From Lysobacteraceae bacterium (lineage in GTDB: Bacteria > Pseudomonadota > Gammaproteobacteria > Xanthomonadales > Xanthomonadaceae), in contig JAUXUI010000069.1 in NCBI GenBank assembly GCA_030681035.1, positions 27,674-91,673 of the forward strand: a stretch of 64,000 nucleotides of DNA, given 5' to 3'. The translations under genes were made by a program, and so were the position numbers. The notes under the pieces were generated by a model. That model had not been told where the DNA came from and made no database searches. It saw only the letters and a list, made by a program, of their open reading frames with translations. The number at the start of each line of letters is the position of its first letter. Within the stretch, counting starts at the first letter, position 1. Shown here in pieces: positions 9,386 to 37,060 of the stretch.

Positions 9386-10471
9386 TTACTGCCCCAGCAC
9401 CGGATAATCGGTATAACCGCGTGCATCACCGCCGTACAGGGTGGCTTGGTCCAGCGGGTTCAGCGCCGCGCCCTGGGCAATGCGTGCCAGATAATCGGGA
9501 TTGGCGATCAGCGGCCGGCCAATGGCCACCATGTCGGCCCGCCCGCTGCTGATGGTCGCCTCGGCCATGTCGGCGTCATAGCCGTTATTGACCATCCACA
9601 CGCCCTTGAAGTGGCTTCGCAGTGCGCTGTAGTCAAAAAATGGCGTGTTGCGATCACCGCCGGTCTCGCCTTCAATGACATGCACGTAGGCAATGCCGAT
9701 TGCTTGCATTTGCGCCACGGCGGCCTCGAACAGCGGCTGCGGCGCGCTGTCGCTGATGTCGTTGAACCCGGACACCGGTGAAAAGCGCACGCCGACCCGC
9801 TGCGCGCCGATGGCGTCGGCCACTGCGCTAACCACTTCGCGCAGAAAGCGGGTGCGATTTTCGATGCTGCCGCCGTAGGCGTCACTGCGCTGGTTGCTGC
9901 TGTCGCGCAAAAACTGGTCAATCAGGTAGCCGTTGGCGGAATGCACTTCAACGCCATCAAAGCCGGCATCGATGGCGTTACGTGCAGCCTGGCGATAATC
10001 GGCCACGGTTTGCGCGATGTCCTCGGTGCTCAGCGCGCGCGGCATCGACACATCGACAAAGCCCTCGGCAGTAAAGGTTTTGCTGGCAGCGCGTATGGCA
10101 GATGGCGCAACCGGCGCCTGGCCATCGGGCAACAGGCTGCTGTGCGAGATTCGCCCGACATGCCACAGCTGCATGAAGATATGGCCGTCGGCTTCATGTA
10201 CGGCTTGGGTAACCTTGCGCCAACCAGCGACCTGTTCGGCGCTGTGGATGCCCGGCGTGGCGATGTAGCCCTGGCCCATCGGCGATATTTGTGTAGCCTC
10301 GGAAATAATCAGGCCGACGCTGGCACGCTGGGTGTAATAAAGCGCGGCCAGCGGGCCCGGCACATTATCTGCAGCGGCGCGGTTGCGCGTCAACGGTGCC
10401 ATGGCGATGCGATTGGATAGGAGGATGTCGCCCAAAGTCAGCGGCTTGAGCAAAGCGGTAGGTGCAGTCAT
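9386..10471 (-). CDS. Old Yellow Enzyme family NADH:flavin oxidoreductase / alkene reductase (NemA-like)
   Basis: NRIAMAPLTRNRA, LWHVGRISH, GFDGVEVHSANGYLIDQFL, RSDAYGGSIENRTRF. Confidence 0.85.
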   Translation of the reverse strand: MTAPTALLKPLTLGDILLSNRIAMAPLTRNRAAADNVPGPLAALYYTQRASVGLIISEATQISPMGQGYIATPGIHSAEQVAGWRKVTQAVHEADGHIFMQLWHVGRISHSSLLPDGQAPVAPSAIRAASKTFTAEGFVDVSMPRALSTEDIAQTVADYRQAARNAIDAGFDGVEVHSANGYLIDQFLRDSSNQRSDAYGGSIENRTRFLREVVSAVADAIGAQRVGVRFSPVSGFNDISDSAPQPLFEAAVAQMQAIGIAYVHVIEGETGGDRNTPFFDYSALRSHFKGVWMVNNGYDADMAEATISSGRADMVAIGRPLIANPDYLARIAQGAALNPLDQATLYGGDARGYTDYPVLGQ

Positions 10472-16968: not shown

Positions 16969-17292
16969 TCAACAACCAGCGGTCTTCTTGAACGTCAGAC
17001 TCTTGTTGGTGCCGCCGGCGTTGTCGTACTTGGTGCGGATTTCGTCGCCTTCGACGATGCGCTCGTCCTTGAACTTGTCGAGGGTCAGGTCGTCGGTGAT
17101 GGTGATGACGACGGACTCGCCGGTCTTGCCGTGCTCCAGAATGGCGATCACGGACTTGCCGTCGGCGGCCATCTGGATTTCGGTAATGGTGCCGACCATC
17201 TTGACCTCGTCGGCCAGCGCGGCGGGGGGGGCCGTGATGGCGGCAAACGTCAGGGCGGTCGCGAGGATCATGCGGGTGAGGGTGCTGTTCAT
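16969..17292 (-). CDS. Small secreted protein of unknown function (107 aa, C-terminal Cys)
   Basis: Signal peptide MNSTLTRMILATALTFAAITAPPAALA. It is the last gene of the cytochrome operon. No family recognised. Confidence 0.6.
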   Translation of the reverse strand: MNSTLTRMILATALTFAAITAPPAALADEVKMVGTITEIQMAADGKSVIAILEHGKTGESVVITITDDLTLDKFKDERIVEGDEIRTKYDNAGGTNKSLTFKKTAGC

Positions 17293-17336
17293 GGCGTACT
17301 CCTTGGAGTTGTGGGAAGGCCGGGATTTGGGTTCGA

Positions 17337-19130
17337 TCAGAAGATGACCTCGAATGTGGCATAGAGGTCGTAGGCGTGATCGAGCGGTGCGGTGGTCATC
17401 AATTGCCCGTTCACTTGCGACAGCTTGAGCGGGGCGCCGACCCAGTTGTTGCTGCCGGTGTACTGGAAATCGTAGTACTGCGCGCCGATCCGGAAGAACG
17501 CCTTGGCATCGTGGGACGAGATCGCCTTCTTGTTCAGTTCCAGAATGACGTAGGCGTCGTAGACGTTGCCGCGGGTGCCGACCTTGGAGGTCCAGATGTC
17601 GGCGGCGGCTGGCGCGAAGGTGATCCAGTTCTTGCTGCCGTGGTTGTATTCGAAGCCCAGCTTGGTTCTGGCCGGCAGATTGTAGTCAAGGTCGTAACGC
17701 AGGCCGAGCGAATACGCAGTGCCAGTCTTGCTGCTGGGCGCTTCCGGGCTGAAGAAACCACCGGTCAGCAGACCCTGGAAGCCGAACTGTGCGGAAACAT
17801 TGTCGTTCGGATGGGTGATGCTGCGACCAACTTCGGCGAAGTAGTTGAGGGTGCCCTTGCCCACGTTCTCGAACAAGCCGATGGCGCCGGCGCCCCACCA
17901 TTCGATATCGCCCAGATTGGTCTGCGGCATGGTGTTGCCGAAGAAGGTGTCACGCATCACCGGGGCGTCGAAAATATTGAAGCCACGGTTCCATTGCGTC
18001 CAGATGCGCAGTGGATCGGTGTCGATCGGGACGAACTGGACGCCGAACATGTCGGTGTCTTGCGGCGAGTTGTTGGGCTGGGTGCGGAACCCGGCTTCGA
18101 ATCCTCGGCCATAGCAAAGCTTGAAGTAGGCACCTGGCAGGATTTCGACATCCGGCGCATAGCCCAGCGACATGCCGTCGAAGGCGTAGTCAACCAACAA
18201 TGAGGGCGTGCCGCCGTTGCCCGGACGCCCGGTGTTCTGCTTCAAGTTGCGCGGCACACCGTCCGACGAGGGGCGACGACCGACCGAGAACCAGAGGTCT
18301 TGCCCGGCGATGTTGCTCCAGGTGGCATAGGCCTGATCGACGTTGAGGAAGCCGCTCGACGGGATGTGCCCGAGCGTACCGTCGAATACCCCGACGCGAT
18401 CAGCGAAAAACGGCGCCGCCCCGCCATTGGTGACGGCGCTGGCGTCATTGGCGCCAAACGTCTTGTACATCAGCAGGCGGGTGGTGATCACCACGTTCTG
18501 CGTCGCCTTGATGTGCATGTCGAGGCCGAAGCGGTTGGTGTAAAGCGTCGAGTTCTTCGGCTTGAACGAGGGCACGGTGGCGGCGAAGCCGCCAATCCCT
18601 TGCATCAAGCCGGCGTTCATTGGGTTGGAGACGAAGGCGTTGGCCTGCTCGTAGTTTTCGACGGCTGCCATGTTCTGCGAGAACTGCATCAGCGCGCTCA
18701 ACGCACCGGCGGTGGACAAGCCCATGCCGCCGAAGAATGTGGATGAACCCGGCGCGGTGGACGGATTGGCAAAGAAGTCGGCCTGCAATGCCTGCTGGGT
18801 ATTGTCGAAGGTGGATTTGACGTCGGTGAAGGTGCGGGTCTCGCCCTTGAGATTGTCTACCCGAAACTGGTAATCACCGCCGAGGTCCAGCCATTTGGCG
18901 AGCGATTTGTCCTCGACCTTGTTGATCTTTTTCTGCAATGCTTCGGTTGTCTTGACGTTGGCGTCGCTACGGGTTTTCCCCGCTTCAACCTGGCTCTTGA
19001 GCTCAGCCAGTTCTTTCGCCAATGCCTCGATCTTGCTCAGCAACGCGGCCTCGTCGGCGTGCGCCTGGAGCGGCAGGAAGAACGCGCAAATGCAGGTCGC
19101 GAGGAGTGTTTTCGACAGGGTCTTGTTCAT
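17337..19130 (-). CDS. Large outer-membrane beta-barrel-like protein with N-terminal coiled coil (DUF3373-like)
   Basis: Start at MNKTLSKTLLATCICAFFLPLQAHA (signal peptide). A coiled coil follows (LLSKIEALAKELAELKSQVEAG...KKINKVEDK). The rest is alternating aromatic/Gly-rich sequence ending in ...YDLYATFEVIF, a C-terminal Phe typical of OMPs. Confidence 0.6.
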   Translation of the reverse strand: MNKTLSKTLLATCICAFFLPLQAHADEAALLSKIEALAKELAELKSQVEAGKTRSDANVKTTEALQKKINKVEDKSLAKWLDLGGDYQFRVDNLKGETRTFTDVKSTFDNTQQALQADFFANPSTAPGSSTFFGGMGLSTAGALSALMQFSQNMAAVENYEQANAFVSNPMNAGLMQGIGGFAATVPSFKPKNSTLYTNRFGLDMHIKATQNVVITTRLLMYKTFGANDASAVTNGGAAPFFADRVGVFDGTLGHIPSSGFLNVDQAYATWSNIAGQDLWFSVGRRPSSDGVPRNLKQNTGRPGNGGTPSLLVDYAFDGMSLGYAPDVEILPGAYFKLCYGRGFEAGFRTQPNNSPQDTDMFGVQFVPIDTDPLRIWTQWNRGFNIFDAPVMRDTFFGNTMPQTNLGDIEWWGAGAIGLFENVGKGTLNYFAEVGRSITHPNDNVSAQFGFQGLLTGGFFSPEAPSSKTGTAYSLGLRYDLDYNLPARTKLGFEYNHGSKNWITFAPAAADIWTSKVGTRGNVYDAYVILELNKKAISSHDAKAFFRIGAQYYDFQYTGSNNWVGAPLKLSQVNGQLMTTAPLDHAYDLYATFEVIF

Positions 19131-22838: not shown

Positions 22839-23902
22839 AGACCCTGCGGCGGGCGACGGGCTTGGCTTTGCTGTGGGCGCTGGCCGGTTGTGGCAGCACG
22901 GCGCCTGAGATTCCGGTAGCAACGGCTTCGCCGGCGCTGGCCGAGCTGACGGTGCAGCCGGAAACCGCGCCGCGCGAGCGCATCTGGGATGGCGTGGTCG
23001 AAGCGGTGAACCAGGCCACCTTGTCGGCACAAACCGGTGGCCGGGTGCTGGAACTGCCCTACGATGTCAACGATTACGTGCCAGCCGGTGCGGTGGTGGT
23101 GCGCTTCACCGCCGTGGAGCAGCAATCCGGGCAACGCCGTGCGCAGGCCGGGCTGGCAGCGGCGCAAGCGGCGGCCACCGAGGCCGAGGCCAATTATCAA
23201 CGCATCGCCGAAGTGTTTGCGAAAAAACTGGTGGCACGCGCGCAACTCGATCAAGCCACGGCGCAGCGTGATGCCGCGCGCGCGGCGTTGGAGTCAGCAC
23301 GTGCAGCGGTGCGCGAGGCTGGCGAGCAGGTCGATTACACCGTCATCCGCGCGCCGTATTCGGGCATCCTCACCCAGCGCCATGTTGAACTGGGCGAAAC
23401 GGTGCGGCCCGGCCAGCCATTGGTGTCCGGGCTCTCCCTCAATCAATTGCGGGTGAACGTGGAGATACCGCAAAGCGACATGCTGGCAGTGCGCGAGCAC
23501 GACAAGGCGTCGGTGCTGCTGGCCGACGGCAAGCGCTTGGCTGCCGAGCGCATGGTGGTATTTCCGTTCGCCGACCCCGCCAGCCACAGCTTCAAGGTGC
23601 GCCTGGAATTGCCCGATGCGGAAACCGGCCTGCAACCGGGCATGACGGTGAAGGCAGCGTTTGTGATCGGCGCGGCCGAGCGCCTGCTGCTGCCGCTGAG
23701 TGCGCTGGTGCGGCGCAGCGAAATTTCCGGCGTGTATGTGCTTGGCGAACACGGCCCGCAACTGCGGCAGTTGCGGCTGGGCCATCGTTACGGCGAGCGC
23801 GTGGAAGTGCTGGCCGGGCTAGATGCAGGTGAGCGCATTGCGCTCGATCCCAATGCCGCACGGCTGGCGCTGGTTGCCTTGCGGGAGCCGCTACATGAGT
23901 GA
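22835..23902 (+). CDS. RND efflux periplasmic adaptor (membrane fusion) lipoprotein
   Basis: Lipobox LWALAGC. Coiled-coil and barrel-sandwich motifs (YTVIRAPYSGILTQRHVELGETV). Confidence 0.85.
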   Translation: MKTLRRATGLALLWALAGCGSTAPEIPVATASPALAELTVQPETAPRERIWDGVVEAVNQATLSAQTGGRVLELPYDVNDYVPAGAVVVRFTAVEQQSGQRRAQAGLAAAQAAATEAEANYQRIAEVFAKKLVARAQLDQATAQRDAARAALESARAAVREAGEQVDYTVIRAPYSGILTQRHVELGETVRPGQPLVSGLSLNQLRVNVEIPQSDMLAVREHDKASVLLADGKRLAAERMVVFPFADPASHSFKVRLELPDAETGLQPGMTVKAAFVIGAAERLLLPLSALVRRSEISGVYVLGEHGPQLRQLRLGHRYGERVEVLAGLDAGERIALDPNAARLALVALREPLHE

Positions 23903-26900
23903 GCACCTCGGCTTCTCCGGGCGTATTGCGCGGGCGTTTCAGGGTAATCCGCTGACGCCGGTGCTGGCGCTGGCCGGGCTGTTGCTGGGGCTGGCGGCGG
24001 TTCTGGTGACGCCGCGCGAGGAGGAGCCACAGATCGATGTGACCATGGCCAACGTGACGGTGCCATTCCCCGGTGCCAGCGTCGAGGATGTCGAAAACCT
24101 GGTCAGCTACCCGCTGGAGCAGGTGCTTGCGGAAATCGAAGGCGTGCGTCATGTGTATTCGGCGAGCCGCCCCGGCGTGGCGGCGATCACTGTCGAGTTC
24201 CAGGTGGGCGTACCACGGCAGACCGCGATCGTGCGGCTGTACAACCAGGTTTATGCCAACGCCGACTGGGCACCGCCCGGGCTCGGTGTCGGCCAGCCGC
24301 TGGTGCAGCCGATGGGCATCGACGATGTGCCGGTGATGGCGCTGACCTTGTGGACCGAAGACGGCGCACGCGGCGCTACCGAACTGGCTGAAGTGGCGCA
24401 CACGCTGGAGAGTGAACTCAAGCGCGTGCCCGGCACCCGCGATGTCTACACCATTGGCGCGCCGGATCGTGCGGTGCTGGTGCAACTGGATGCTGCGCGA
24501 CTGGCGGCGTATGGGCTGGCCACAGAAGACCTGGTCGGCGCGCTGCGCGCCGCCAATGTGGTTACCCAGGCCGGTGAGCGCATCGGTGCCGAGGGCGTGG
24601 TGCCGGTCACCGCTGGCACCTTCCTCGCCGATGCCGATGAAGTGGCGGAGCTGGTGATCGGGCTGCATCAGGGCAAGCCGGTTTACCTCAGCGACGTGGC
24701 ACAGGTGACGCGTGGAGCCGATTTGCCCACGCAATATGTCTGGCACGGCGCGCCGGCGAAGCGTGTCGGCCCGGCTGGGATTGCCCCGGCAGTAACCCTG
24801 GCGGTTGCCAAACAACCGGGCCGCAATGCCGCCGACATCACCCGCGCGATCACGCAGCGGATGCAGGCGTTGCGCGGCAGCCTGATCCCGCAAGGGGTGC
24901 AATACACCATCACCCGCGATTACGGCCAGACCGCCACCGACAAAGCCGAAAAGCTGATCCACAAGCTGATCTTCGCTACCTCGGCGGTGGTGTTGCTAAT
25001 GCTGGTGGCACTGGGCTGGCGCGAGGCGGTGATTGTCGGCACTGCGGTGGTGGTGACCCTGGCGCTGACCTTGTTCGCGTCATGGGCGATGGGCTTCACA
25101 CTCAACCGGGTATCGCTGTTTGCGCTGATCTTTGCGATCGGCATTCTGGTCGACGATGCCATCGTGGTGGTCGAAAACATTCACCGCCACCTGCGTGCGG
25201 GTGCGCGCAGTTTGCACGAGGCGATTGCACCGGCGGTGGACGAGGTGGGCGGGCCGACCATTCTGGCCACGTTTACGGTGATCGCGGCGTTGCTGCCGAT
25301 GGCTTTCGTCAGTGGCCTGATGGGCCCGTACATGCGCCCGATTCCGATCAATGCCAGCGTCGGCATGCTGCTGAGTCTGGTGGTGGCGCTGGTGCTGACG
25401 CCGTGGCTGTCGGCGCACTTGCTGGCTGGCGCCGGCGCCCATGCGAGCCCCTCTCCCTCTGGGGAGACAACGCACGGCTTGCGCGCCATTGGCGCGCGTG
25501 CGCTGGAGCGCCTGCGCCGCTGGCGCAGGCCGGGGCGCGAAGCGGGGGTTGGGGTGAGGGTTCAGGCTAAGCGCACCGCTACTGCGTCCCCGGACCCTCA
25601 CCCCCAGCCCCTCTCCCGAGGGGAGAGGGGGGCAAAGCCGGCGTTGTCCGGTATGGTTTCGCGATTCTTCGAACGCCTGCTGCGGCCGTTTCTGGATGTT
25701 CGCGCGGGCGCTCGTCGCCGCCGCTGGCTGTTCGCCGGTGTGGGCGCGCTGGTGCTGCTGGCCGCGGGGCTGGTGGCGGTGCAGGCGGTGGTGTTGAAGA
25801 TGCTGCCGTTCGACAACAAGAGCGAATTCCAGGTGGTGGTAGACCTGCCCGAAGGCAGCACGCTGGAAGACACCAACGCACTGCTGGCGCAACTGGCGAC
25901 GGCGCTGGATGACGTGCCCGAAGTGCGTGATTACCAGGCCTACGCCGGCACCTCGGCGCCGATGACCTTCAACGGGCTGGTGCGGCAGTACTACCTGCGC
26001 CGCGGCGCCAACGTCGGCGACTTGCAGGTGAACCTGCTCGATGCGCAGCAGCGCAGCCGCCAGAGCCATGTCATTGCCCAGGCGGTGCGGCCGGTGCTGG
26101 CGGAAATTGGCAGCAGGGCAGGGGCCTCGGTAAAAGTGGTGGAAGTGCCACCCGGGCCACCGGTGATGGCACCGATCGTGGCCGAGGTGTACGCGCCCAC
26201 CGCTGCCGATGCGCGCGCCGTTGCCAGCGCGTTGCGCGAGCGCTTCGTCGCCACCGACGGCATCGTCGATATCGACACCAGCATGGAGGCCGATTCAGCG
26301 CGCGAGATCGTGGTGGTGGATCGCGCCCGCGCCGCGCATCTGGGCATCAGCCAGGCCAGCATCGCGCAGACCCTGCAACTGGCGTTGAGCGGTTTTGATG
26401 CCACCTATTTGCGCGATGGCGCGTCCAAGTACGCGGTGCCGCTGCGCCTGCGGCTGCCCGCTGGCGATCAGGCCAGCATGGATGGCTTGCTGGCACTGCG
26501 CGTGCGTGCCGGCGATGGCGGCTTGGTGCCGTTGTCGGAATTGGTGCAGGTGCAGCGCGCCGGTTGGGAAGGCGCAATCCTGCACAAGGATCTGCTGCCG
26601 GTGGCGTACGTCACCGGCGATGAGGCCGGTGCCAGCGACAGCCCGCTGTATGGCATGTTCAATCTGGTTGGGCAGTTGCGCGATGCGTCGCTGGCCGGCC
26701 ATCGCATCGACCAGCACTTCATCGCGCAGCCGCTGCGCAGCGATGCGTTCGCGGTGAAATGGGATGGCGAGTGGCAGATCACCTACGAAACCTTCCGCGA
26801 CATGGGCATCGCCTACGCGGTGGGCCTGGTGCTGATCTACCTGCTGGTAGTAGCGCAGTTCCGCAGTTATCTGACGCCGCTGGTGATCATGGCGCCGATC

Positions 26901-27290
26901 CCGCTGACGGTGATCGGGGTGATGCCCGGCCATGCGCTGCTGGGCGCACCGTTCACCGCCACCTCGATGATCGGCATGATTGCGCTGGCCGGCATCATCG
27001 TGCGCAACTCGATCCTGCTGGTCGATTTCATCAACCACGCATTGGCGAAGGGCAAGGCGCTGGAAGACGCGGTGATCGAAGCCTGCGCAGTACGTGCGCA
27101 GCCAATCGTGCTGACCGCATTGGCGGCCATGCTTGGCGCTTTCTTCATCCTCGATGATCCGATCTTCAACGGCCTGGCAATTGCGCTGATCTTTGGCCTG
27201 CTGGTGGCCACCAGTTTGACCTTGATCATGATCCCATTGCTGTATTACGCCATGCTGCGGATTCGGCCACTCACAGGAGTCCAGTCATGA
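23895..27290 (+). CDS. RND family efflux permease (AcrB/HAE-type), with an in-frame ~70-codon repeat-derived insertion
   Basis: The start MSEHLGFSGRIARAF overlaps the MFP stop. 12-TM RND architecture (VDDAIVVVENIHRH, IVRNSILLVDF). About 1131 aa, which is longer than I recall for this family (from memory about 1030-1060 aa). Confidence 0.9.
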   Translation: MSEHLGFSGRIARAFQGNPLTPVLALAGLLLGLAAVLVTPREEEPQIDVTMANVTVPFPGASVEDVENLVSYPLEQVLAEIEGVRHVYSASRPGVAAITVEFQVGVPRQTAIVRLYNQVYANADWAPPGLGVGQPLVQPMGIDDVPVMALTLWTEDGARGATELAEVAHTLESELKRVPGTRDVYTIGAPDRAVLVQLDAARLAAYGLATEDLVGALRAANVVTQAGERIGAEGVVPVTAGTFLADADEVAELVIGLHQGKPVYLSDVAQVTRGADLPTQYVWHGAPAKRVGPAGIAPAVTLAVAKQPGRNAADITRAITQRMQALRGSLIPQGVQYTITRDYGQTATDKAEKLIHKLIFATSAVVLLMLVALGWREAVIVGTAVVVTLALTLFASWAMGFTLNRVSLFALIFAIGILVDDAIVVVENIHRHLRAGARSLHEAIAPAVDEVGGPTILATFTVIAALLPMAFVSGLMGPYMRPIPINASVGMLLSLVVALVLTPWLSAHLLAGAGAHASPSPSGETTHGLRAIGARALERLRRWRRPGREAGVGVRVQAKRTATASPDPHPQPLSRGERGAKPALSGMVSRFFERLLRPFLDVRAGARRRRWLFAGVGALVLLAAGLVAVQAVVLKMLPFDNKSEFQVVVDLPEGSTLEDTNALLAQLATALDDVPEVRDYQAYAGTSAPMTFNGLVRQYYLRRGANVGDLQVNLLDAQQRSRQSHVIAQAVRPVLAEIGSRAGASVKVVEVPPGPPVMAPIVAEVYAPTAADARAVASALRERFVATDGIVDIDTSMEADSAREIVVVDRARAAHLGISQASIAQTLQLALSGFDATYLRDGASKYAVPLRLRLPAGDQASMDGLLALRVRAGDGGLVPLSELVQVQRAGWEGAILHKDLLPVAYVTGDEAGASDSPLYGMFNLVGQLRDASLAGHRIDQHFIAQPLRSDAFAVKWDGEWQITYETFRDMGIAYAVGLVLIYLLVVAQFRSYLTPLVIMAPIPLTVIGVMPGHALLGAPFTATSMIGMIALAGIIVRNSILLVDFINHALAKGKALEDAVIEACAVRAQPIVLTALAAMLGAFFILDDPIFNGLAIALIFGLLVATSLTLIMIPLLYYAMLRIRPLTGVQS
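25446..25631. repeat. Palindromic REP/MITE-like element embedded in frame in the RND permease gene
   Basis: Inverted pair GGGGTTGGGGTGAGGGT / ACCCTCACCCCCAGCCCC plus hairpin CCCCTCTCCC-ga-GGGGAGAGGGG. It translates to ...GVGVRVQAKRTATASPDPHPQPLSRGERGA..., located after TM6 in the cytoplasmic loop. Confidence 0.6.
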
Positions 27291-27745: not shown

Positions 27746-27811
27746 GTGGTCGTTGGGCTATGGGTCGCCGATAGGATCGGCTGCTACCGGTGAGCGCAAC
27801 CGCGCTTTGTG

Positions 27812-27880
27812 GTCGCCCACAGGGTGGGCTCCTACAGGTCGGCGCACCCGGTTTTTGTAGGAGCCCACCCTGTGGGCGGC
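27812..27880. repeat. REP inverted pair (GTCGCCCACAGGGTGGGCTCCTAC family)
   Basis: gtcgcccacagggtgggctcctaca ... tgtaggagcccaccctgtgggcggc. Related copies lie at 61325-61390 and 51691-51714. Confidence 0.6.
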
Positions 27881-27897: not shown

Positions 27898-27928
27898 TAC
27901 TCGTAGGGCAACTCGCCGGCCTTGCTCT
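27898..27928 (-). other. Orphan cydB 3'-end-like fragment (candidate island boundary repeat / att-like)
   Basis: Minus strand reads AAG AGC AAG GCC GGC GAG TTG CCC TAC GAG TAA (KSKAGELPYE*). The real cydB end at 37158-37190 reads TGG GGC AAG GCG GGT GAG TTG CGC TAC GAG TAG (WGKAGELRYE*). By my count 26 of 33 nt are identical. Confidence 0.45.
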
Positions 27929-28029
27929 TGACCGATTGAGCCGGCGGGGTAGACTCGCTGGCAGGTATTCATTCTGTCCGGCGTGGTTATCCCGCCGCCG
28001 TCATCATCAGCAAGGAAGGGGGTTTTCGC

Positions 28030-29673
28030 TTGGCGAAGGTAAGCCGCAAGAAAAACGATTCGTCCGCCAATCTCGGTTTCGAGGCCAAGCTCTGGCTCAC
28101 CGCCGACAAACTGCGCAACAACATGGATGCGGCGGAGTACAAGCACGTGGTGCTTGGGCTGATCTTCCTCAAATACATCTCCGATACGTTCGAGGAGCAC
28201 CGCGCCAAGCTCATCGAAGGCGAGGGCAGCTACGAGGGTGCCAATCCCGAAGACCCGGACGAATATAAGGCAGAGAATGTGTTCTGGGTGCCGGCCGATG
28301 CCCGCTGGTCGCACCTGCAGGCCAGTGCCAAGCAGCCCAGCATTGGCAAGACCGTGGACGACGCCATGGTTGCCATCGAGCGCGACAACCCGCGCCTCAA
28401 AGGCGTGCTGCCGAAAGACTACGCCCGCCCCGGGCTCGACAAGCAGCGCCTCGGCGAACTGATCGATGTCATCGCCACCATTGAACTCACAGCCGCCAGC
28501 GAGGGCGAAAAGACCCACCGCTCGGTCGATCTGCTCGGCCGCGTCTACGAATATTTCCTCACCCGCTTTGCCAGCGCCGAGGGCAAGAATGGCGGCCAGT
28601 TCTACACCCCGTCGTGCGTGGTGCGCTGCCTGGTCGAAATGCTCGCCCCTTACAAAGGCCGCATCTACGACCCCGCCTGCGGCTCGGGTGGCATGTTTGT
28701 GCAGTCGGAAAAATTCGTCGAATCGCACGGCGGCAAACTTGGTGACATCAGCATCTACGGCCAGGAGAGCAACGCCACCACCCGCCGCCTCGCGGTGATG
28801 AACCTCGCCCTGCGCGGCATCGAGGCCGACTTCGGCCCCGAGCATGCCGACACCTTCCGCCGCGACCTGCATCCCGACCTGCGCGCCGACTACGTGCTCG
28901 CCAATCCGCCGTTCAACGACTCCGACTGGTTCCGCAAGGATGACGACGTACGCTGGCAATTCGGCGTGCCGCCCAAGGGCAACGCCAACTTTGCCTGGGT
29001 GCAACATTTCGTCCATCACTTGGCACCGAACGGCATGGCCGGCTTCGTCCTCGCCAACGGCAGCATGTCCTCCAACCAGTCCGGCGAAGGCGACATCCGC
29101 CGCGCCCTGATCGAGGCCGATCTGGTGGACTGCATGGTCGCGCTGCCCGGTCAGCTTTTCTACAGCACCCAGATTCCCGTTTGCCTTTGGTTCCTCGCGA
29201 AAAACAAAGCCGCCCGTCATTCCCGCGCAGGCGGGAATCCAGAAAAAACAACAGACCGCCGCAAACAAACGCTGTTCATCGACGCCCGCAAACTCGGCAC
29301 ACTCATCGACCGAGTCCACCGCGAGCTGACCGACGCCGACCTGGAAAAAATTTCCTCCACCTATCACGCCTGGCGCGGCGATGCTCTTGATCGTCATTCC
29401 CGCGAAAGCGGGAATCCAGCGACTTACACCGACATCCCCGGCTTCTGCAAATCCGCAACCACCGCCGAAATCGCCGCCCACGGTCACGTCCTCACTCCCG
29501 GCCGCTACGTAGGCGCCGAAGAAGTCGAAGACGACGGCGAACCCTTCGAAGAAAAGATGCCGCGCCTTGTCGCCGAACTGCACGCCCAGTTTGCCGAATC
29601 CGAGAAGCTGGAGCAGGCCATCAAAGCCAACCTGATTGGGCTGGGCTATGACATAAAGGAGCCACGCGCATGA
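28030..29673 (+). CDS. hsdM: Type I R-M DNA methyltransferase subunit HsdM
   Basis: TTG start. [17 protein letters not shown], AdoMet motif [10 protein letters not shown], catalytic NPPF ([11 protein letters not shown]). Confidence 0.92.
29216..29242. repeat. 27-nt hairpin repeat (GTCATTCCCGCG-N3-CGGGAATCCAG family), in frame inside hsdM
   Basis: gtcattcccgcgcaggcgggaatccag translates as [10 protein letters not shown] within hsdM. Confidence 0.85.
29393..29419. repeat. 27-nt hairpin repeat, second in-frame copy inside hsdM
   Basis: gtcattcccgcgaaagcgggaatccag translates as [10 protein letters not shown] within hsdM. Confidence 0.85.
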
Positions 29674-30101
29674 GACTGAATACCGACCACCTCAAGCGCT
29701 GCATCGATACCCTGCGCTCGTCGCTCACATTTTATGAGCAGGCTGCGGCGGACAGCATAGACCAGGAAATTTTCCGCAACGCCATCGTCAAAGGCTACGA
29801 ACTGGCGCAAGAGACCAGCTTCAAACTGGTAAAAAAAGCCCTGCGTGATTACGGCCACGGCGCAAAAAAGCTCGACACCACGCCCATCAAGGATCTGCTG
29901 CGTTTGTCCGCCACCCATGGCTTGATGACACTCGAAGAAGTGGAACGCTGGTTTGCCTATCGCGACAACCGCAACAACACCGCCCATGACTACGGCGAAA
30001 ACTTCGCCAGGGAAACGCTACGCTTGATTCCCGGCTTCATTGCCGACGTGACGCGACTGGAAACCATCCTGCGCGAACGCTACAGCGAAGGAGACAACTG
30101 A
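29670..30101 (+). CDS. HEPN-domain protein (nucleotidyltransferase substrate-binding protein, HI0074 family)
   Basis: The Rx4H motif is in [12 protein letters not shown]. The ATGA start overlaps the hsdM stop. Confidence 0.8.
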
Positions 30102-30439
30102 TGCCCGAACGATCGTTGCAAACACTGGCGTTGCTGCCCCAGCATCTGGCGATGTTGCGCGCGCTGCTGCAACAGCATCTGCCGCACGCCGAGGTCTGGG
30201 CCTACGGCAGCCGCGTCAACGGCAATGGTCACGACGCCAGCGACCTCGATCTGGTGGTGCGTCAGCCGAACGACCTGAAACAGCAGACCCCCAAACTGGG
30301 AGAAACGCAGGAAGCCTTGTCCGAAAGCAACCTGCCCATTCGCGTCGAGATAGTGGATTGGGCGCGCATCCCGGCCAGTTTCCACCGCGAAATCGAGCAG
30401 GCGTATGTGGTGGTGCAGACGGCGCGTGCGCATGCTTGA
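30101..30439 (+). CDS. Minimal nucleotidyltransferase (MNT) partner of the HEPN protein
   Basis: The GSx10-12DxD motif is in YGSRVNGNGHDASDLDLVV. TGATG overlap with the HEPN gene. Confidence 0.8.
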   Translation: MPERSLQTLALLPQHLAMLRALLQQHLPHAEVWAYGSRVNGNGHDASDLDLVVRQPNDLKQQTPKLGETQEALSESNLPIRVEIVDWARIPASFHREIEQAYVVVQTARAHA

Positions 30440-30446
30440 GGCAAGG

Positions 30447-30493
30447 CAGGCCATCAAAGCCAACCTCACGGGCTTGGGGTATGGCAAGTGAGC
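30447..30493 (+). pseudogene. Orphan duplicate of the hsdM 3' end / hsdS start junction
   Basis: caggccatcaaagccaacctcacgggcttggggtatggcaagtga encodes QAIKANLTGLGYGK* with embedded ATGGCAAGTGAG (MASE). The first 20 nt are identical to 29614-29633. Confidence 0.6.
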
Positions 30494-30557
30494 AACAACA
30501 CTCGCGCCGCGCGCCGTCATCCCCGCGTCGCGTGCCGTCATTCCCTCACCCCTTCCT

Positions 30558-30584
30558 GTCATTCCCGCGAAAGCGGGAATCCAG
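30558..30584. repeat. 27-nt hairpin repeat, preceded by degenerate half copies at ~30516-30547
   Basis: gtcattcccgcgaaagcgggaatccag. Confidence 0.85.
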
Positions 30585-30593
30585 CCAACACAA

Positions 30594-30887
30594 ATGATCG
30601 ACAAACAGCCAGCGGTGTACATTCTTGCCAGCCGCCGCAACGGCACACTGTACGTCGGCGTCACCAGCGATCTCACCAAGCGGATATGGCAACATCAAAA
30701 CGACCTCGCCGAGGGCTTCACCCAGCGCTACAACGTGCATCTACTGGTCTGGTACGAACAACACAGCGAAATCGTAAGTGCCATCGTCCGCGAGAAGCAG
30801 ATCAAGAAATGGAACCGCGCGTGGAAACTCACATTGATCGAAGCAAAAAACCCACAATGGCACGACCTGTGGCCGACTCTGCTATGA
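30594..30887 (+). CDS. GIY-YIG nuclease family protein (small URI-domain protein)
   Basis: AVYILASRRNGTLYVGVTSDLTKRIWQH.....GFTQRYNVHLLVWYE......AIVREKQIKKWNRAWK. Confidence 0.85.
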   Translation: MIDKQPAVYILASRRNGTLYVGVTSDLTKRIWQHQNDLAEGFTQRYNVHLLVWYEQHSEIVSAIVREKQIKKWNRAWKLTLIEAKNPQWHDLWPTLL

Positions 30888-30934
30888 GCCCGCCATGCGT
30901 CCGCGTACCCGAAGCCGGCAGGCAACCGGTGGCT

Positions 30935-30961
30935 CTGGATTCCCGCTTTCGCGGGAATGAC
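30935..30961. repeat. 27-nt hairpin repeat (inverted orientation)
   Basis: ctggattcccgctttcgcgggaatgac. Confidence 0.85.
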
Positions 30962-30977
30962 GGCAGGGGGTTGGGCT

Positions 30978-32287
<1,310 letters not shown>

Positions 32288-32291
<4 letters not shown>

Positions 32292-33358
32292 GCAAAAAGA
32301 AACCCACACCCGGCGGTCGCGCCAAGAAAAAGGCCGAAGTCTCCCTCGTCCGCTCGTCGGCGGCGGAATACCTGACCTTTGTGGCGGCTGGAGGCGCCTC
32401 TGAAGCCAGCGTTGAAATGCGCTACGAAGATGAAAACGTCTGGCTCACGCAGAAGATGATGGCGGCGCTTTACGATGTCTCCGTCCCCGCCATCAACCAG
32501 CACCTGAAGCGCATTTTCAGCGACAACGAACTGGAGGAAAGTTCAGTTGTTAAGCAATACTTAATAGCTGCCGCAGACGGCAAAAATTACCTGACGAAGC
32601 ACTACAGCCTGCAAGCGATCATCGCCGTGGGCTTCAAGATCGAGAACGAGCGGGCCGTCCAATTCCGCAAATGGGCCAACCAGATCGTGAAGGACTACAC
32701 GATCCAAGGCTGGACGATGGATGCGGAGCGCCTCAAGCAAGGTGGCATCCTGACGGATGAGTTTTTTGAGCGGCAGCTTGAGAAGATTCGGGAAATCCGG
32801 CTCTCCGAGCGAAAGTTCTACCAGAAAATCACGGACATTTACGCCACCGCGCTGGACTACGACCCGTCCGCTACGGCGACGAAGCGCTTCTTTGCCGCAG
32901 TGCAAAACAAGATGCACTTCGCCGTGCATGGCCAGACGGCGGCTGAGGTGATCGTGGACCGCGCCGACCATCAAAAACAAAACATGGGGCTGACGACTTG
33001 GGAGGCTGCGCCGAAAGGGAAAATCCAACGCTACGACGTTTCCATCGCCAAGAACTACCTCTCGGACTCCGAAATGGGCCAGATGCAGCGCATCGTCTCC
33101 GCCTACCTCGACATGGCCGAGATGCAGGCGATGCGGAAGATTCCGATGACCATGGAAGACTGGGAAAAGCGCTTGAGCGGCTTCCTCCAACTCTGGGACC
33201 GGGACATTCTACAGGACGCGGGCAGAGTGTCGGCGGAACTGGCAAAGGCCCATGCCGAGAGCGAGTTTGAGAAATACCGCATCGTGCAGGACCGGCTGTT
33301 CGAGTCGGACTTTGACCGGATAATCAAGGAGCTGCCGTCGGGGGCCGACAAGTCATGA
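32288..33358 (+). CDS. rhuM: RhuM family (virulence protein RhuM-like) protein embedded between hsdS and hsdR
   Basis: [75 protein letters not shown] overlaps at both ends. Confidence 0.8.
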
Positions 33359-36300
33359 GCCTCAACGAATCCACCGTCGAAGACGCCGCCCTCGAATGGT
33401 TCAGGGAGCTGGGCTATGCGATCGGCCACGGGCCGCAACTCGCACCCGGTGAGCCGGCGGCAGAGCGCGATTCGTTTGCCGAGGTGGTGCTGGCGGGGCG
33501 ATTGCGTGAAGCCATCGCGCGATTGAACCCCTCCATTCCGGAAGACGCACGGGATGAAGCGCTGCGCAAGGTGTTGAGAGTAGGGACGCCTTCGCTGACG
33601 CAGAGCAACCGTGCCTTTCACCGGATGCTCAGGGACGGGGTTGATGTTGAATACCCACGTGAGGACGGCTCGATCAAGGGCGACAAGGTTTTACTCGTCG
33701 ATTTTGCGGATGTCCGGGCAAATGACTGGTTCGTCGTGAACCAATTCACCGTGATCGAGGGCCAGCACAACCGGCGGCCGGACATCGTGGTGTTCCTCAA
33801 TGGGCTGCCGCTGGGCCTGATCGAGCTGAAGAACGCGGCGGATGAGGACGCGACGATCTGGAGCGCCTACGCGCAGTTGCAAACCTACAAGGCGGAGATT
33901 CCCAGTCTGTTGCATTACAACGCGGCGCTGGTGGTGAGTGATGGCTTGCAGGCGCGCATGGGTTCGGTGACGGCGAACCAGGAATGGTTCAAGGTCTGGC
34001 GCACGATTGATGGCGAGGGTGACGCGCCGAAGGCGGCGCTGGAGCTGGAAGTGCTGATACGCGGGGTGTTCGAGCGGCAGCGCTTGCTCGACTTGCTGCA
34101 CCACTTCATCGTTTTCGAGGAAGACCCGGATTCGGGCGCGCTGCACAAGATCATCGCCGGCTACCACCAGTTTTACGCGGTGAATGCCGCGGTGGAAGAA
34201 ACCGTGCGCGCCAGTGGCATGCGTGTACACGAGGAGGCCGGCAGGTATTGGGCGGGCCGGATGCACGGTGGCAAACCGGGCGATCGTCGCGCCGGCGTGG
34301 TCTGGCACACGCAGGGCAGCGGCAAGAGTTTTTCGATGCTGTTTTTTGCCGCGCGCGTGGTGCGGCATGCGGCGATGCAGAACCCGACGCTGGTGGTGCT
34401 GACTGACCGCAATGATCTTGATGACCAGCTTTTCGGCCAGTTCCAACGCTGCGCCGACATCCTCGGCCAGACGCCGGTGCAGGCCGGCGGGCGCGAGCAT
34501 TTGCGCGAGCTGCTGAACCGTGCCAGCGGCGGCGTGGTGTTCACCACCATTCACAAGTTCATGCCCGAAAAAGGCGAGGCGATGCCCGAGCTGAGCGCGC
34601 GGCAGAACATTGTCGTGATTGCGGATGAAGCGCACCGCAGCCAGTACGGGTTTGGCGGCAAGGTGGATGAAAAGACCGGCGATATGACCTACGGCTTCGC
34701 CAGCAACCTGCGCGATGCCTTGCCCAATGCGTCGTACATCGGTTTCACCGGCACCCCCATCGAAAAGACCGACGCCAACACGCGGGCGGTGTTCGGCGAT
34801 TACATTTCCATCTACGACATCCAGCGCGCCGTTGCCGACAAAGCCACGGTGCCAATCTATTACGAGAGCCGCATTTCCAAGCTGAGCCTGAATGCTGCCG
34901 AGCTGCCGCAGCTCGATGAAGAGTTCGAGGAAATCACCGAAGGCGAGGAACTGACGAGGAAGGAAAAGCTCAAGACCAAGTGGGCCGCGCTGGAGGCGCT
35001 GGTGGGCGACCCGAAACGCATCGCGCTGGTGGCCGCCGACCTGGTGACGCATTTCGAGAAACGCCTGGAGGCGATGGACGGCAAGGCAATGATTGTGTGC
35101 ATGAGCCGCCGCATTGCCGTCGACCTGTACAACGCGCTGATCGATCTGCGGCCGGAGTGGGCCAGCGCCCAGGACGACGATGCGGAGGTGGAAAAGGGCA
35201 AGGCCTGTGTGGTGAAGGTGGTTATGACCGGCAGTGCCGACGATGGCCCCGATTGGCAGCCGCATATCCGCAGCAAGGACAAGCGCCGCAAGCTGGCGTA
35301 CCGTTTCAAGGATGTCAACGACCCGTTCCGTATCGTGATTGTGCGCGACATGTGGCTGACCGGGTTCGACGCGCCCTGCCTGCACACCATGTACGCCGAC
35401 AAGCCGATGCAGGGCCACGGACTGATGCAGGCCATCGCCCGGGTGAACCGCGTTTTCCGCGACAAGCCCGGCGGCTTGGTCGTGGATTACCTCGGCCTTG
35501 CCGATCAGCTCAAGCAGGCGCTGGTGACCTACACCGAGAGCGGCGGGCAGGGTGATCCCACTTTCGACACCGCGCAAGCCATTGCCGTGATGTTGGAGAA
35601 ACACGGCATCGCTTGCGACCTGATGCACGGCCTCGACTGGCGCAAGTGGACCAACGGCAAACCTGCTGAGCGCCTTGCCCTCATGCCCGCTGGGCAGCAA
35701 CACATCCTCGAACAGGCTGACGGCAAGCAACGCTGGGTGCAGATGGTGACCGAACTCTCGCGTGCCTTTGCCCTTTGCGCGGCCAGCGATGAGGCGACGG
35801 CAATCCGCGACGACGTTTCCTACTTCCAGGCCCTGCAAGCCGCGCTCAACAAGCAGACCAGCGAGAACCGCAAGACCCCCGAGCAGATCGATGCCGCAAT
35901 CCGCCAGCTCGTGAGCCGTGCCATCACTACCGAAGGCCAGGTGATCGATGTTTTCACTGCTGCCGGCTTGCCCAAGCCGGACATCAGTATCTTGAGTGAT
36001 CAGTTTCTCGCCGAAGTGCGCGGACTCAAGCACAAAAACGTCGCCGCCGAGCTGCTGGAGAAGTTGCTCAAGGATGAACTCAAGGTGCGCGCTCGGCGCA
36101 ACCTGGTGCAGAGCCAGGTGTTTTCGGAGAAGCTCAAAAAGACCCTCAACGCGTATCACAACCGTGCCATCTCGACGATGCAGGTAATCGAGGAACTGAT
36201 CAATCTCGCCAAGGACCTCGATGCCGCCAGCAAGCGCGGCGAAGACATGGGCCTGAGCGTCGATGAAGTGGCCTTTTACGACGCGTTGGCTGCCAACGAA

Positions 36301-36540
36301 TCCGCCGTGATTGCGATGGGCGACGACAAGCTGCGCGTCATCGCCGCCGAGCTGATCACCAAGGTTCGGCAAAGCACCACGATCGATTGGCAGTATCGCG
36401 AAAGCGCCCGCGCCAGAATCCGCGTCATCGTCAAGCGCATCCTCAACAAATATGGCTACCCACCCGATCTGCAGAATGCCGCCGTCCAACTGGTGTTGCA
36501 GCAAGCGGAGTTGCTGTCAGCTGAGTGGGCGGTGGCGTAG
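33355..36540 (+). CDS. hsdR: Type I restriction endonuclease R subunit HsdR
   Basis: [21 protein letters not shown]. Nuclease region [20 protein letters not shown]. Helicase motifs [31 protein letters not shown]. Confidence 0.92.
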
Positions 36541-36610
36541 CTGGTGGCGTAGCCGGTGGCGGAAAGCTGGGTCGGTCGCGAATGGCGCTTACATAAGCCA
36601 GAACACCCTC

Positions 36611-36883
36611 AATTCGTCATTCCCGCGAATGCGGGAATCCAGTGACTTTAATTCGTCATTCCCGCGAATGCGGGAATCCAGTGACTTTAATTCGTCATTC
36701 CCGCGAATGCGGGAATCCAGTGACTTTAATTCGTCATTCGCGCGAATGCGGGAATCCAGTGACTTTAATTCGTCATTCCCGCGAATGCGAGAATCCAGTG
36801 ACTTTAATTCGTCATTCCCGCGAATGCGGGAATCCAGTGACTTTAATTCGTCATTCCCGCGAATGCGGGAATCCAGTGACTTT
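36611..36883. repeat. Tandem array: 7 x 39 bp units, each containing the 27-nt hairpin
   Basis: The unit is aattcgtcattcccgcgaatgcgggaatccagtgacttt, starting at 36611, 36650, 36689, 36728, 36767, 36806 and 36845. Two units carry single substitutions (copy 4 c->g, copy 5 g->a). Confidence 0.92.
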
Positions 36884-36942
36884 GGGAAATTGGGCACAAG
36901 CGAAAGAAACTGGATGCCGGCTGTAGCCTGCCCTCGAATGTT

Positions 36943-37060
36943 TTAAGGAAACTCTGAACAAGTCGTCACCCCGGCGAAGGCCGGGGTCCAGGTTATTGAT
37001 TCTGCTGGATTCCCGCTTTCGCGGGAATGACGAAATCCAACTTGTTCAGAGCGTCCTTAA
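36943..37060. mobile_element. MITE-like element: terminal inverted repeats flanking two hairpin modules
   Basis: Left end TTAAGGAAACTCTGAACAAGT. Right end ACTTGTTCAGAGCGTCCTTAA, whose reverse complement is TTAAGGACGCTCTGAACAAGT. Internal hairpins GTCACCCCGGCGAAGGCCGGGGTCCAG (36965-36991) and CTGGATTCCCGCTTTCGCGGGAATGAC (37005-37031). Confidence 0.55.

Follow-up and report, generated by a model that had tools for sequence, protein, structure and literature searches.

Does a type I restriction-modification (R-M) operon that holds additional genes between its own subunit genes represent one multi-layer defense system, or a host operon that has taken up passengers? We examined this question for a seven-gene locus of a Lysobacteraceae bacterium (assembly GCA_030681035.1, contig JAUXUI010000069.1) within a stretch of 64,000 nt, hereafter the window, to which all coordinates refer; the loci of relatives are coded L001 and so on. 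At positions 28030-36540 of the window, seven intact open reading frames (ORFs) lie on the plus strand in the order hsdM, HEPN, MNT, GIY-YIG, hsdS, rhuM, hsdR. A preliminary description of this DNA had read the HEPN-MNT pair, the GIY-YIG gene and rhuM as embedded accessory modules, perhaps a guard layer like PrrC, and the whole as a candidate multi-layer defense system. We find instead an intact type I R-M operon into which three passengers, each of a kind already described, have come independently; it does not amount to a novel class of defense system, and we consider it probable (roughly 0.68) that these passengers are co-transcribed with the host genes and act in parallel with restriction rather than as a PrrC-like guard. 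The locus is a compact natural case of an immune operon gathering extra modules, and it joins three separate literatures, those on embedded defense candidates, type VII toxin-antitoxins and Ssn/NTS single-strand nucleases.

An intact type I operon with embedded genes

Profile searches against Pfam and PADLOC, which the preliminary description had proposed, gave strong domain assignments for all seven proteins (Table 1), and each of the three core subunits is of type I by sequence. HsdM matches the Pfam N6_Mtase (1e-103) and PADLOC MTase_I (5e-213) models and retains the AdoMet-binding motif DPACGSG at residue 214 and the catalytic motif NPPF at 292; HsdS, with two target-recognition domains, matches Methylase_S (1e-19) and PADLOC Specificity_I (1e-119, covering residues 11-429); and HsdR matches TIGR00348 (2e-172), has a HindI-like C-terminus and carries both the PD-(D/E)xK nuclease motif (D143..E157-x-K159) and the DEAH box of the superfamily 2 (SF2) translocase at residue 424. 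We take hsdM-hsdS-hsdR to be an intact, functional-looking type I R-M system. The hsdS frame is formally open from ATG 30957, which lies within a hairpin repeat and is probably not the start codon; the L001 gene call begins at the equivalent of 30978.

The preliminary description was correct that the seven genes are co-directional and that four of their junctions are start/stop overlaps, each of which we read directly from the sequence: ATGA for hsdM/HEPN (29670-29673), TGATG for HEPN/MNT (30099-30103), and ATGA for both hsdS/rhuM (32288-32291) and rhuM/hsdR (33355-33358). Two short spacers break the run, between MNT and the GIY-YIG gene (30440-30593) and between the GIY-YIG gene and hsdS (30888-30977). 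They had been described as filled with hairpin repeats, which holds for one full hairpin in each; the first spacer also contains a relic of the hsdM 3' end and hsdS start together with degenerate half-repeats, and the second, in which the hairpin has the opposite orientation, contains another hsdM-tail relic fused to the true hsdS start. Co-orientation and start/stop overlaps are usual features of operons. Embedded genes, in the figures that Payne et al. give on their orientation, are co-oriented with the host system in 96.7% of cases (Payne et al. 2024, bioRxiv 10.1101/2024.01.29.577857), so that, on both counts, these features are real at this locus, yet unremarkable on their own. The claim that the locus exceeds a plain R-M operon stands, with passengers that are co-directional with the host genes and probably co-transcribed.

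Table 1. Features of the R-M island in the window, with coordinates and supporting matches
Feature	Position	Strand	Support and remarks
Promoter-like site, TTGACC-16-TAGACT; candidate operon promoter	27928..27955	+	~75 nt upstream of hsdM
hsdM, type I methyltransferase subunit, 547 aa, TTG start	28030..29673	+	Pfam HsdM_N + N6_Mtase
NTS repeat, in frame within hsdM, variable loop 1	29215..29242	+	0 mismatches; 8-bp stem; variable position in HsdM alignment
NTS repeat, in frame within hsdM, variable loop 2	29392..29419	+	0 mismatches; fold z-score -3.1
HEPN, HI0074 / NTase_sub_bind family, predicted RNase toxin	29670..30101	+	PF08780 5e-19
MNT, minimal nucleotidyltransferase, predicted AMPylating antitoxin	30101..30439	+	NTP_transf_2/Polbeta ~2e-7
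Junction version 2, relic hsdM 3' end (QAIKANLTGLGYGK, then stop) overlapping relic hsdS start (ATGGCAAGTGA)	30447..30491	+	45 nt, after MNT; putative cassette-insertion scar
NTS repeat, ssn 5' flank	30557..30584	+	1 mismatch; preceded by degenerate half-repeats ~30507-30556
ssn-like gene, single-domain GIY-YIG nuclease, 97 aa, predicted site-specific single-strand DNA endonuclease	30594..30887	+	PF01541 6e-15
NTS repeat, ssn 3' flank, inverted orientation	30935..30962	-	0 mismatches
Junction version 3, hsdM-tail relic (..GLGYGE, then stop) fused to true hsdS start codon 30978	30966..30988	+	23 nt, directly after 3' NTS
hsdS, specificity subunit, 437 aa from ATG 30978	30978..32291	+	Methylase_S, 2 matched stretches
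rhuM, 356 aa, PADLOC PDC-S05, predicted winged-helix + helical domain	32288..33358	+	PF13310 1e-103
hsdR, restriction/translocase subunit, 1061 aa	33355..36540	+	HSDR_N, SWI2_SNF2, T1R_D3-like, T1RH-like_C
Tandem array, 7 x 39-bp units, NTS hairpin in each	36615..36876	+	After hsdR
NTS repeat, closing the island at right	37005..37032	-	0 mismatches

Cargo at the hsd junctions of related loci

We compared the host operon with 80 loci, from many phyla, that encode HsdM relatives 63-89% identical to the protein in the window; 52 of these loci are complete for hsdM-hsdS-hsdR. The slot between hsdS and hsdR holds cargo of at least 500 bp (0.5-5.8 kb) in 48/52, with hsdS abutting hsdR in only 4/52, and the slot between hsdM and hsdS is also occupied in about 19/52. 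In the hsdS-hsdR slot, we found Abi_C, AAA_21, Schlafen AlbA_2 (SLFN_AlbA_2), SIR2_2, AAA_15, TIR_2, ThsB_TIR, GmrSD_N, reverse transcriptase (RVT_1), DUF3800, Fic and RhuM families, and in the hsdM-hsdS slot DUF1016/YhcG, ORF6N, RhuM, Uma2, Mrr, BrnTA, ParDE, PemK, PIN, HepT and IS200/IS605-TnpB. Cargo differs even among relatives with 85-89% identical HsdM, and the trio of HEPN-MNT, ssn and rhuM occurs in none of the ~160 related loci examined. This turnover speaks against the trio as a candidate multi-layer defense system, given that close relatives carry entirely different cargo.

The cargo of the locus is an instance of the embedded-genes phenomenon of Payne et al. (2024), who formalized 'guilt by embedding', with the PADLOC PDC candidates derived from embedded genes; a multilevel R-M/RhuM program had been proposed in 2013 (Anantharaman et al. 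2013, PMC3710099). The general idea of embedded modules, found in the literature of 2013 and 2024, is thus not new. As in the type I R-M, BREX, DISARM and Hma systems treated by Payne et al., the passengers here are co-directional and lie between hsd genes, and the window RhuM and MNT match the PDC-S05 and PDC-S09 models, respectively, whereas the Ssn/NTS passenger is not a recognized anti-phage candidate. A comparable arrangement is TgvAB in the VPI-2 type I R-M operon of Vibrio cholerae (PMC11411939), likewise a second defense module co-oriented inside the operon. TgvAB protects without the hsd genes, independently of HsdR restriction, although 10-100-fold more weakly against several phages than the whole cluster does (PMC11411939); in contrast to the RhuM, HEPN-MNT and Ssn of the window, it is a GmrSD-like type IV restriction system.

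Relics of hsd gene ends at the insertion points

HsdM of the relatives ends in ...NLRGLGYGG, with a stop codon that overlaps the hsdS start (ATGGCGGGTGAATGG), and the window holds three versions of this hsdM-end/hsdS-start junction. The first is the C-terminal tail of the functional hsdM, whose sequence the HEPN cassette has altered and which runs directly into the start of HEPN. The second is the relic that follows MNT, which aligns to the canonical junction of L009 and to a longer relic in L099, and the third, which likewise aligns to the canonical junction, adjoins the true hsdS start (Table 1). The layout of L099 is hsdM-HEPN-MNT-[150-nt relic]-hsdS-rhuM-hsdR, without ssn, and its 150-nt hsdM-tail relic is nearly identical to the canonical junction. 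Relics of hsdM tails or hsdR N-termini are present in 10 further loci (9 places, since L085 and L086 carry one in common): hsdM tails in L011, L015, L111 and L137, and hsdR N-termini, upstream of later cargo, in L006, L009, L012, L024 and L085.

From these leftover duplicated hsd gene ends, we infer that the three passengers, HEPN-MNT, ssn and rhuM, were acquired separately. The proposed route is homology-facilitated illegitimate recombination, in which one end of a cassette would recombine within a conserved hsd gene and the other would be joined illegitimately. Such scars, present in the window, did not turn up in the passages of Payne et al. (2024) and Anantharaman et al. (2013) consulted here. 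A search for duplicated hsd gene ends is simple, and this signature could be used in thousands of R-M loci to date cargo insertions and establish their orientation.

RhuM is enriched at, but does not co-vary with, type I genes

We tabulated the neighbors of rhuM in 80 metagenomic loci encoding RhuM relatives. The gene immediately upstream encodes an Hsd subunit in 16/68 cases (HsdM in 8, HsdS in 3 and HsdR in about 5) and McrBC in 5/68, and the gene immediately downstream encodes HsdS in 8/61 and an HsdR-type helicase in about 6/61 (Hsd total ~14/61). The preliminary description thus rightly placed RhuM among the repeated inhabitants of type I R-M loci; its enrichment at these genes is very strong, but not obligate. 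RhuM positions vary, from before hsdM through the M-S and S-R junctions to after hsdR. The gene lies directly upstream of hsdR in L006, L010, L024, L025, L054 and L099 and after hsdR in L132, L147 and L166, the order in L083 being rhuM-KilA-N-hsdM-hsdS-Bro-N-hsdR and that in L085 hsdS-rhuM-[relic]-cargo-hsdR. In several rhuM loci, no type I gene was detected within the ~10 kb of flank on each side by a tblastn panel of two Hsd families, which other type I families would escape. KilA-N, Bro-N and ORF6N proteins, members of RhuM's broad fold class, are recurrent cargo too (L083 10001-19537; L111 1-6991; L085 5423-15400), and phage-regulator-like DNA-binding proteins may form a general class of R-M passengers.

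The identities of RhuM and of the Hsd subunits to the window proteins are discordant. In L083, RhuM is 92% identical, with HsdM at 26% and HsdR at 23%, and in L006, RhuM is 46% identical, with HsdM at 86% and HsdR at 81%. We used these discordant pairs alone and set aside the Spearman correlation of RhuM with Hsd identity (rho -0.45 and -0.36), in which the selection of the two sets of loci by different queries is a confounder.

These data bear on the possibility that RhuM and/or HEPN-MNT are kept inactive by an EcoprrI-like Hsd complex, or by its synthesis, and are released, like PrrC, to cause abortive infection once a phage blocks restriction. Precedents for R-M guardians exist in PrrC and PARIS (PMC12707154), the R-M/RhuM program outlined in PMC3710099 points the same way, and the over-representation of Hsd genes beside RhuM is heavy. 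Furthermore, rhuM is translationally coupled to hsdS and hsdR in both the window and L099, with coupling to hsdR only in L010 and L024, and HEPN-MNT recurs in L038 and L099 in equal order with its ATGA overlap with hsdM. However, a RhuM docked to or restrained by a particular Hsd complex should not show such discordance, and we accordingly rate this possibility as unlikely. The same conclusion is favored by the occurrence of RhuM before hsdM, after hsdR, beside McrBC or, within the reach of the two-family panel, away from type I genes, by the high cargo turnover among close relatives, and by the protection that a RhuM-domain gene confers alone in E. coli B (PMC12881386). The locus does resemble EcoprrI (PrrC) and RloC loci in that the type I genes enclose an RNase-type module that could be toxic, but no passenger in the window has an ABC-ATPase or matches an anticodon-nuclease family, the two parts of the PrrC architecture. 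Moreover, PrrC is almost exclusive to type I loci (Payne et al. 2024), whereas RhuM is often elsewhere and does not co-vary with Hsd. We found no specific tie to the Hsd complex of the kind that the earlier guard proposal implies. The enrichment of RhuM and HEPN-MNT at hsd junctions nevertheless leaves room for a generic functional link to type I R-M, and for RhuM such a link, for example to restriction-produced DNA ends, is conceivable; this counts against fully independent passengers.

RhuM as a predicted DNA-binding anti-phage protein

RhuM of the window scores 346 bits against PF13310 (Virulence_RhuM; cut-off 33.7), 7e-148 against PADLOC PDC-S05 and 490 bits against PDLC04851 (residues 21-350). 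The family has ~37,000 representatives (50% identity clusters); more than 120 clusters at the 90% identity level are 88-96% identical to the window protein, some of them named from Verrucomicrobiota and Binatia metagenome-assembled genomes (MAGs), and proteins from Streptococcus, Enterococcus and Aerococcus are 71-75% identical. RhuM is thus exceptionally conserved and also mobile. Apparent RhuM fusions to pieces of a phosphorylase, a recombinase or HsdM were dismissed as likely chimeras of assembly or gene calling; only Bro-N fusions seem genuine.

Single-sequence and profile searches of the PDB yielded no sequence-related solved structure for RhuM, the matches to IL-5 (E 0.3) and to an Ntox15-domain protein (E 0.019, residues 276-346) being discarded as noise. 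A first AlphaFold run, with 40 sequences at least 69% identical apart from one 38% outlier, was discarded at a predicted local distance difference test (pLDDT) value of 46, whereas the AlphaFold (AF2) model built from a deeper, diverse alignment reached a pLDDT of 80. This model consists of an N-terminal winged helix (~residues 44-117) followed by an all-helical domain. Its best Foldseek match in the PDB is DdrC of Deinococcus radiodurans (E 3e-3, probability 1.0, TM up to 0.56), a DNA-break-binding protein (PMC11347143), and a viral library returned phage proteins of the 'repressor domain', Bro-N, KilA-N and antirepressor types (E down to 8e-8); Foldseek found no Fic/Doc or nuclease fold match for the model. 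DdrC (PDB 7qvb, 8u0g; PMC11347143) and the phage Bro-N, KilA-N and antirepressor proteins share with the predicted RhuM fold the order of an N-terminal winged helix and then a helical domain; unlike them, RhuM has invariant polar residues of its own, and the identity amounts to only 11-18%, at TM 0.2-0.56.

Although the preliminary description regarded RhuM as lacking an established function, and the family is among the most widespread uncharacterized defense candidates, anti-phage activity has been published: in E. coli B, a RhuM-domain gene of the PDC-S05 type, expressed by itself, reduced the plating of T7 and T5 ~1000-fold and that of T4 ~10-fold (PMC12881386). Given the winged-helix and helical fold, which is like that of DdrC and of the phage Bro/KilA/antirepressor regulators, we take RhuM to be a stand-alone anti-phage protein that would act through DNA binding; this predicted fold, similar to that of DNA-binding regulators, points to experiments on DNA binding. 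Several observations weigh against this assignment. The homolog tested in PMC12881386 is a different protein from the window RhuM; the fold matches are weak in TM-score (0.2-0.56); and, among the invariant residues of RhuM (W52, F126, I170, R171, E174, N256), the polar R171, E174 and N256 of the C-terminal domain might indicate enzymatic activity and not DNA binding alone. On the basis of Doc fusions, Anantharaman et al. (2013, PMC3710099) suggested that RhuM is a protein-modifying toxin, which the predicted fold does not support; because the invariant residues could form an active site, such a role is still conceivable.

The winged-helix N-terminal domain and the repressor/antirepressor-type fold would also suit a DNA-binding controller of the operon, comparable to a C protein, that tunes hsdR expression rather than acting on phage, and the usual position of rhuM in this host R-M family, just upstream of hsdR in the six loci listed above, fits such a role. 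We nonetheless consider a controller highly improbable, as RhuM occurs in other positions and, as far as the two-family panel reaches, without type I genes, its large, highly conserved C-terminal domain would be needless in a simple regulator, and the RhuM-domain gene of PMC12881386 protects by itself.

HEPN-MNT is probably a sister branch of type VII toxin-antitoxins

The preliminary reading of HEPN-MNT as a toxin-antitoxin type module is borne out by intact motifs in both proteins, RX4HXY in HEPN (R101-NNTA-H106-D-Y108) and GSX10DXD in MNT (G36-S-x10-D48-L-D50). In the PDB, HI0074 (1jog, 2e-8) is the closest protein to HEPN by sequence, and a Legionella HEPN toxin (8xdj) matches at 7e-3. MNT matches PADLOC PDC-S09 and, in addition, the N-terminus of one PADLOC Specificity_I model. 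Because HEPN scores under the curated HepT and MntA cut-offs and fits PF08780 (NTase_sub_bind; 69 vs a cut-off of 31.8), we assign it to a sister branch of the HI0074 type, not to the HepT/MntA equivalogs, with a mechanism that is probably shared. In type VII HEPN/MNT systems, MNT AMPylates the tyrosine of the RX4HXY motif, which silences the RNase (PMC11586414; PMC7641770). The pair in the window resembles these systems (PMC7641770; for Legionella, PMC11586414) in its adjacent overlapping genes, in both motifs and in its similarity to HI0074 and the Legionella toxin, and it differs from HepT/MntA in belonging to the NTase_sub_bind/HI0074 branch, in its HEPN-MNT order and in being embedded between hsdM and hsdS.

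HEPN-MNT also occurs in the diverged relatives L038 and L099, in equal order and in the equal slot, with HEPN overlapping the hsdM stop by 4 nt (ATGA). Since the pair recurs there, and given the MNT-like N-terminus of the Specificity_I model, the hsdM-hsdS junction is a habitual home of HEPN-MNT pairs.

The pair most likely acts as a type VII toxin-antitoxin. Against this identification stand the scores under the cut-offs of Pfam HepT (PF01934; 17.3 vs 23.5) and NCBIfam HI0074/MntA (33.4 vs 60 for MntA_antitoxin, NF047752), and the mntA-hepT order in Shewanella, which is the reverse of the order here. As for immunity, one MNT-like candidate of the PDC-S09 type failed to protect against T7, T5 or T4 (PMC12881386); because of this failure, a defense role of HEPN-MNT is unproven, and the pair may merely stabilize the island.

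The GIY-YIG gene and its hairpins form an Ssn/NTS element

In the GIY-YIG protein, PF01541 covers residues 7-78, with the GIY/YIG motif VYIL..LYVG; its matches to WD40 proteins in the PDB are repeat artefacts. The hairpins around the gene match the 28-nt consensus of the 'Neisseria transformation sequence' (NTS), CGTCATTCCCGCGMAVGCGGGAATCYRG (Chenal et al. 2025, Nat Commun, PMC11893778). With at most one mismatch, the 64-kb window contains 14 matches to this consensus vs 0 expected, of which 10 fall within 29215-37032. The hairpin has the composition CGTCATTCCCGCG(A/C)A(A/G)GCGGGAATCCAG, with a stem of 8 bp and a loop of 4 nt; a variant with a GAAT loop occurs in the 39-bp array.

The Ssn family comprises small single-domain GIY-YIG nucleases that cut single-stranded DNA (ssDNA) beside their own repeat and modulate natural transformation, and in Neisseria they restrict incoming transforming ssDNA; the NTS-ssnA-NTS architecture has been described as similar to an insertion sequence (IS), with an analogy to RAYT/REP (PMC11893778). 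We had considered the gene with its inverted hairpins as an undescribed RAYT/REP-like mobile unit, a notion rejected because PMC11893778 already describes exactly such an element. Like that element, the one in the window has a single-domain GIY-YIG protein of ~100 aa, 28-nt hairpins on its 5' and 3' sides (0-1 mismatch), many nearby copies and an IS-like architecture; unlike it, it is enclosed by the type I R-M genes of a MAG from the Xanthomonadaceae and has NTS copies in frame in hsdM. The GIY-YIG gene and the hairpins thus appear to be one known element, Ssn/NTS, landed in the hsdM-hsdS spacer.

A GIY-YIG homolog with 70% identity lies between hydantoinase A and B genes in an unrelated metagenome (L178), likewise bracketed by inverted hairpins, whose stems differ in sequence with pairing kept. 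Another homolog has an amylase gene on one side and a hypothetical gene on the other, and two hairpins follow it downstream. Both of the contexts looked up (2/2) are housekeeping operons, so that the Ssn/NTS element is not tied to R-M loci and does not qualify as the R-M accessory module it had been taken for. An exact-sequence look-up of the GIY-YIG protein returned only this locus, in the sister genome.

The spacer between MNT and ssn measures 154 nt in the window (30440-30593) vs 406 nt in L001 (7900-8306), and the additional 252 nt consist of extra copies of a composite repeat of, by eye, roughly 105 bp. The 39-bp array has seven units in the window and two fewer in L001 (14324-14518), as judged from blast alignments. 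This difference in NTS copy number between near-identical genomes could be either real repeat instability or an assembly artefact.

Other hairpin dialects occur in hsdM, in or near loop 2, of three unrelated relatives, a Rhodanobacter, a Terriglobia and a Cloacimonetes MAG (L014 ~11454, L033 ~2772, L072 ~7092, respectively); the placement at loop 2 is confirmed in the HsdM alignment for L014 and follows from approximate residue number only for L033 and L072. HsdM proteins of other relatives carry different repeat-derived peptides at that loop, for example 'SPSPAGRGAGGEG'. In the window, an ORF for an RND transporter (23823-27290, ACR_tran efflux pump) contains, near 25700-25800, the peptide '...PHPQPLSRGERGAKP...', which is like the 'SPSPAGRGAGGEG'-type HsdM peptides and suggests a further in-frame repeat insertion, in this case in a housekeeping gene. 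The presence of in-frame NTS-type hairpins near one HsdM surface loop in unrelated lineages is an unexplained overlap of transformation-modulating repeats with R-M genes.

Alternatively, the passengers might contribute nothing to host immunity. HEPN-MNT could be an addiction module, NTS-ssn-NTS an IS-like spacer parasite and rhuM a phage-derived hitch-hiker, as might be suggested by the Ssn homologs inside housekeeping operons, the unequal NTS copy numbers of two near-identical genomes, the similarity of the RhuM fold to phage regulatory proteins, the unprotective PDC-S09 candidate (PMC12881386), and the IS200/IS605-TnpB and classical toxin-antitoxin pairs (BrnTA, ParDE, PemK) that fill the equal slot in relatives. 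Yet most cargo families in equal slots are established defense domains (SIR2, TIR, Schlafen, GmrSD, Abi, reverse transcriptase), PDC-S05 is strongly protective in experiment (PMC12881386), and the extreme conservation of RhuM, from the more than 120 clusters at 88-96% identity to the 71-75% identity with Streptococcus, points to strong purifying selection on function. We therefore doubt that the passengers are purely selfish or stabilizing.

A proposed set of parallel barriers in one operon

In the explanation we favor, a type I operon with independently acquired passengers acting in parallel, each of the two internal hsd junctions would have captured passenger genes in separate events. Recombination within the conserved hsd genes would have fixed one end of each insertion and an illegitimate join the other, leaving behind the relics of the hsdM 3' end and hsdS start. 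At the M-S junction, a HEPN RNase would be silenced by MNT through AMPylation of the RX4HXY tyrosine, and the nuclease of NTS-ssn-NTS would cut ssDNA beside its own hairpin repeats; at the S-R junction, rhuM would supply a stand-alone DNA-binding anti-phage protein. All passengers would be read from the hsd promoter and co-expressed with restriction, and they would not sense the state of the Hsd complex. Being read and expressed together, they would provide parallel, additive barriers: next to the restriction of double-stranded DNA (dsDNA) there would be a toxin-antitoxin pair with an RNase toxin, a repeat-flanked nuclease for ssDNA and an anti-phage protein that binds DNA.

Gene content, intact motifs, the NTS match, the relics, the variable cargo of relatives and the RhuM/Hsd discordance are direct observations; co-transcription, toxin-antitoxin and Ssn activity, the mechanism of RhuM and the route of recombination are inferred from sequence and predicted structure. 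Promoter-like sites number 2 in 10 kb vs 2.1 expected by chance, and the promoter and terminator scan as a whole is at chance level, so that a single transcript cannot be established by such a scan; the site listed in Table 1 is plausible as an operon promoter by position alone.

A more speculative extension, to which we assign little probability, sees the type I hsd operons of this family as capture platforms for foreign cassettes. Owing to the NTS hairpins within hsdM and around the island, single-stranded copies of the locus that come in from outside would be cleaved by Ssn, so that the island would police its own replacement by transformation, and RhuM and HEPN-MNT would respond to disturbance of the operon. 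If true, the three modules would make up one barrier, functionally integrated at the dsDNA, ssDNA and RNA levels, and not a chance assembly. The predicted RhuM fold, the relic signature and the HsdM hairpins leave the basic classification of the locus as it is.

Island edges and variation in the host genes

Two inverted copies of another repeat, of the REP type (GTAGGAGCCCACCCTGTGGGCG), lie at 27800-27880 between osmC and hsdM, at the left edge of the R-M island. The GC content of the island (27.9-37.05 kb) is 0.58-0.63, slightly below that of the 5 kb ahead of it (23-28 kb, 0.63-0.68), but close to that of much of the window. A sister contig in GCA_034367205.1 is ~99.9-100% identical over the aligned 21 kb (100% in the first 8 kb), repeat copy number aside.

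Within the 3' end of hsdS, just ahead of the rhuM start, lies a perfect 8-bp hairpin, CTTGTAAG-GCGGA-CTTACAAG (32246-32266), and the HsdS C-terminal tail may be junction-derived. The HsdR of L099 (5909-9565, 1218 aa) contains a whole DUF559 (Vsr-like endonuclease) domain inserted in frame just ahead of the DEAH box and bordered by the repeat-derived linkers 'SPSGRG' and 'SGRGAGGEG', so that this reading frame appears to have taken up a small nuclease gene. The HsdR match is split at the same residue position in L011 (~17075-17433) and L037 (~8981-9441), which probably likewise carry a DUF559 insertion.

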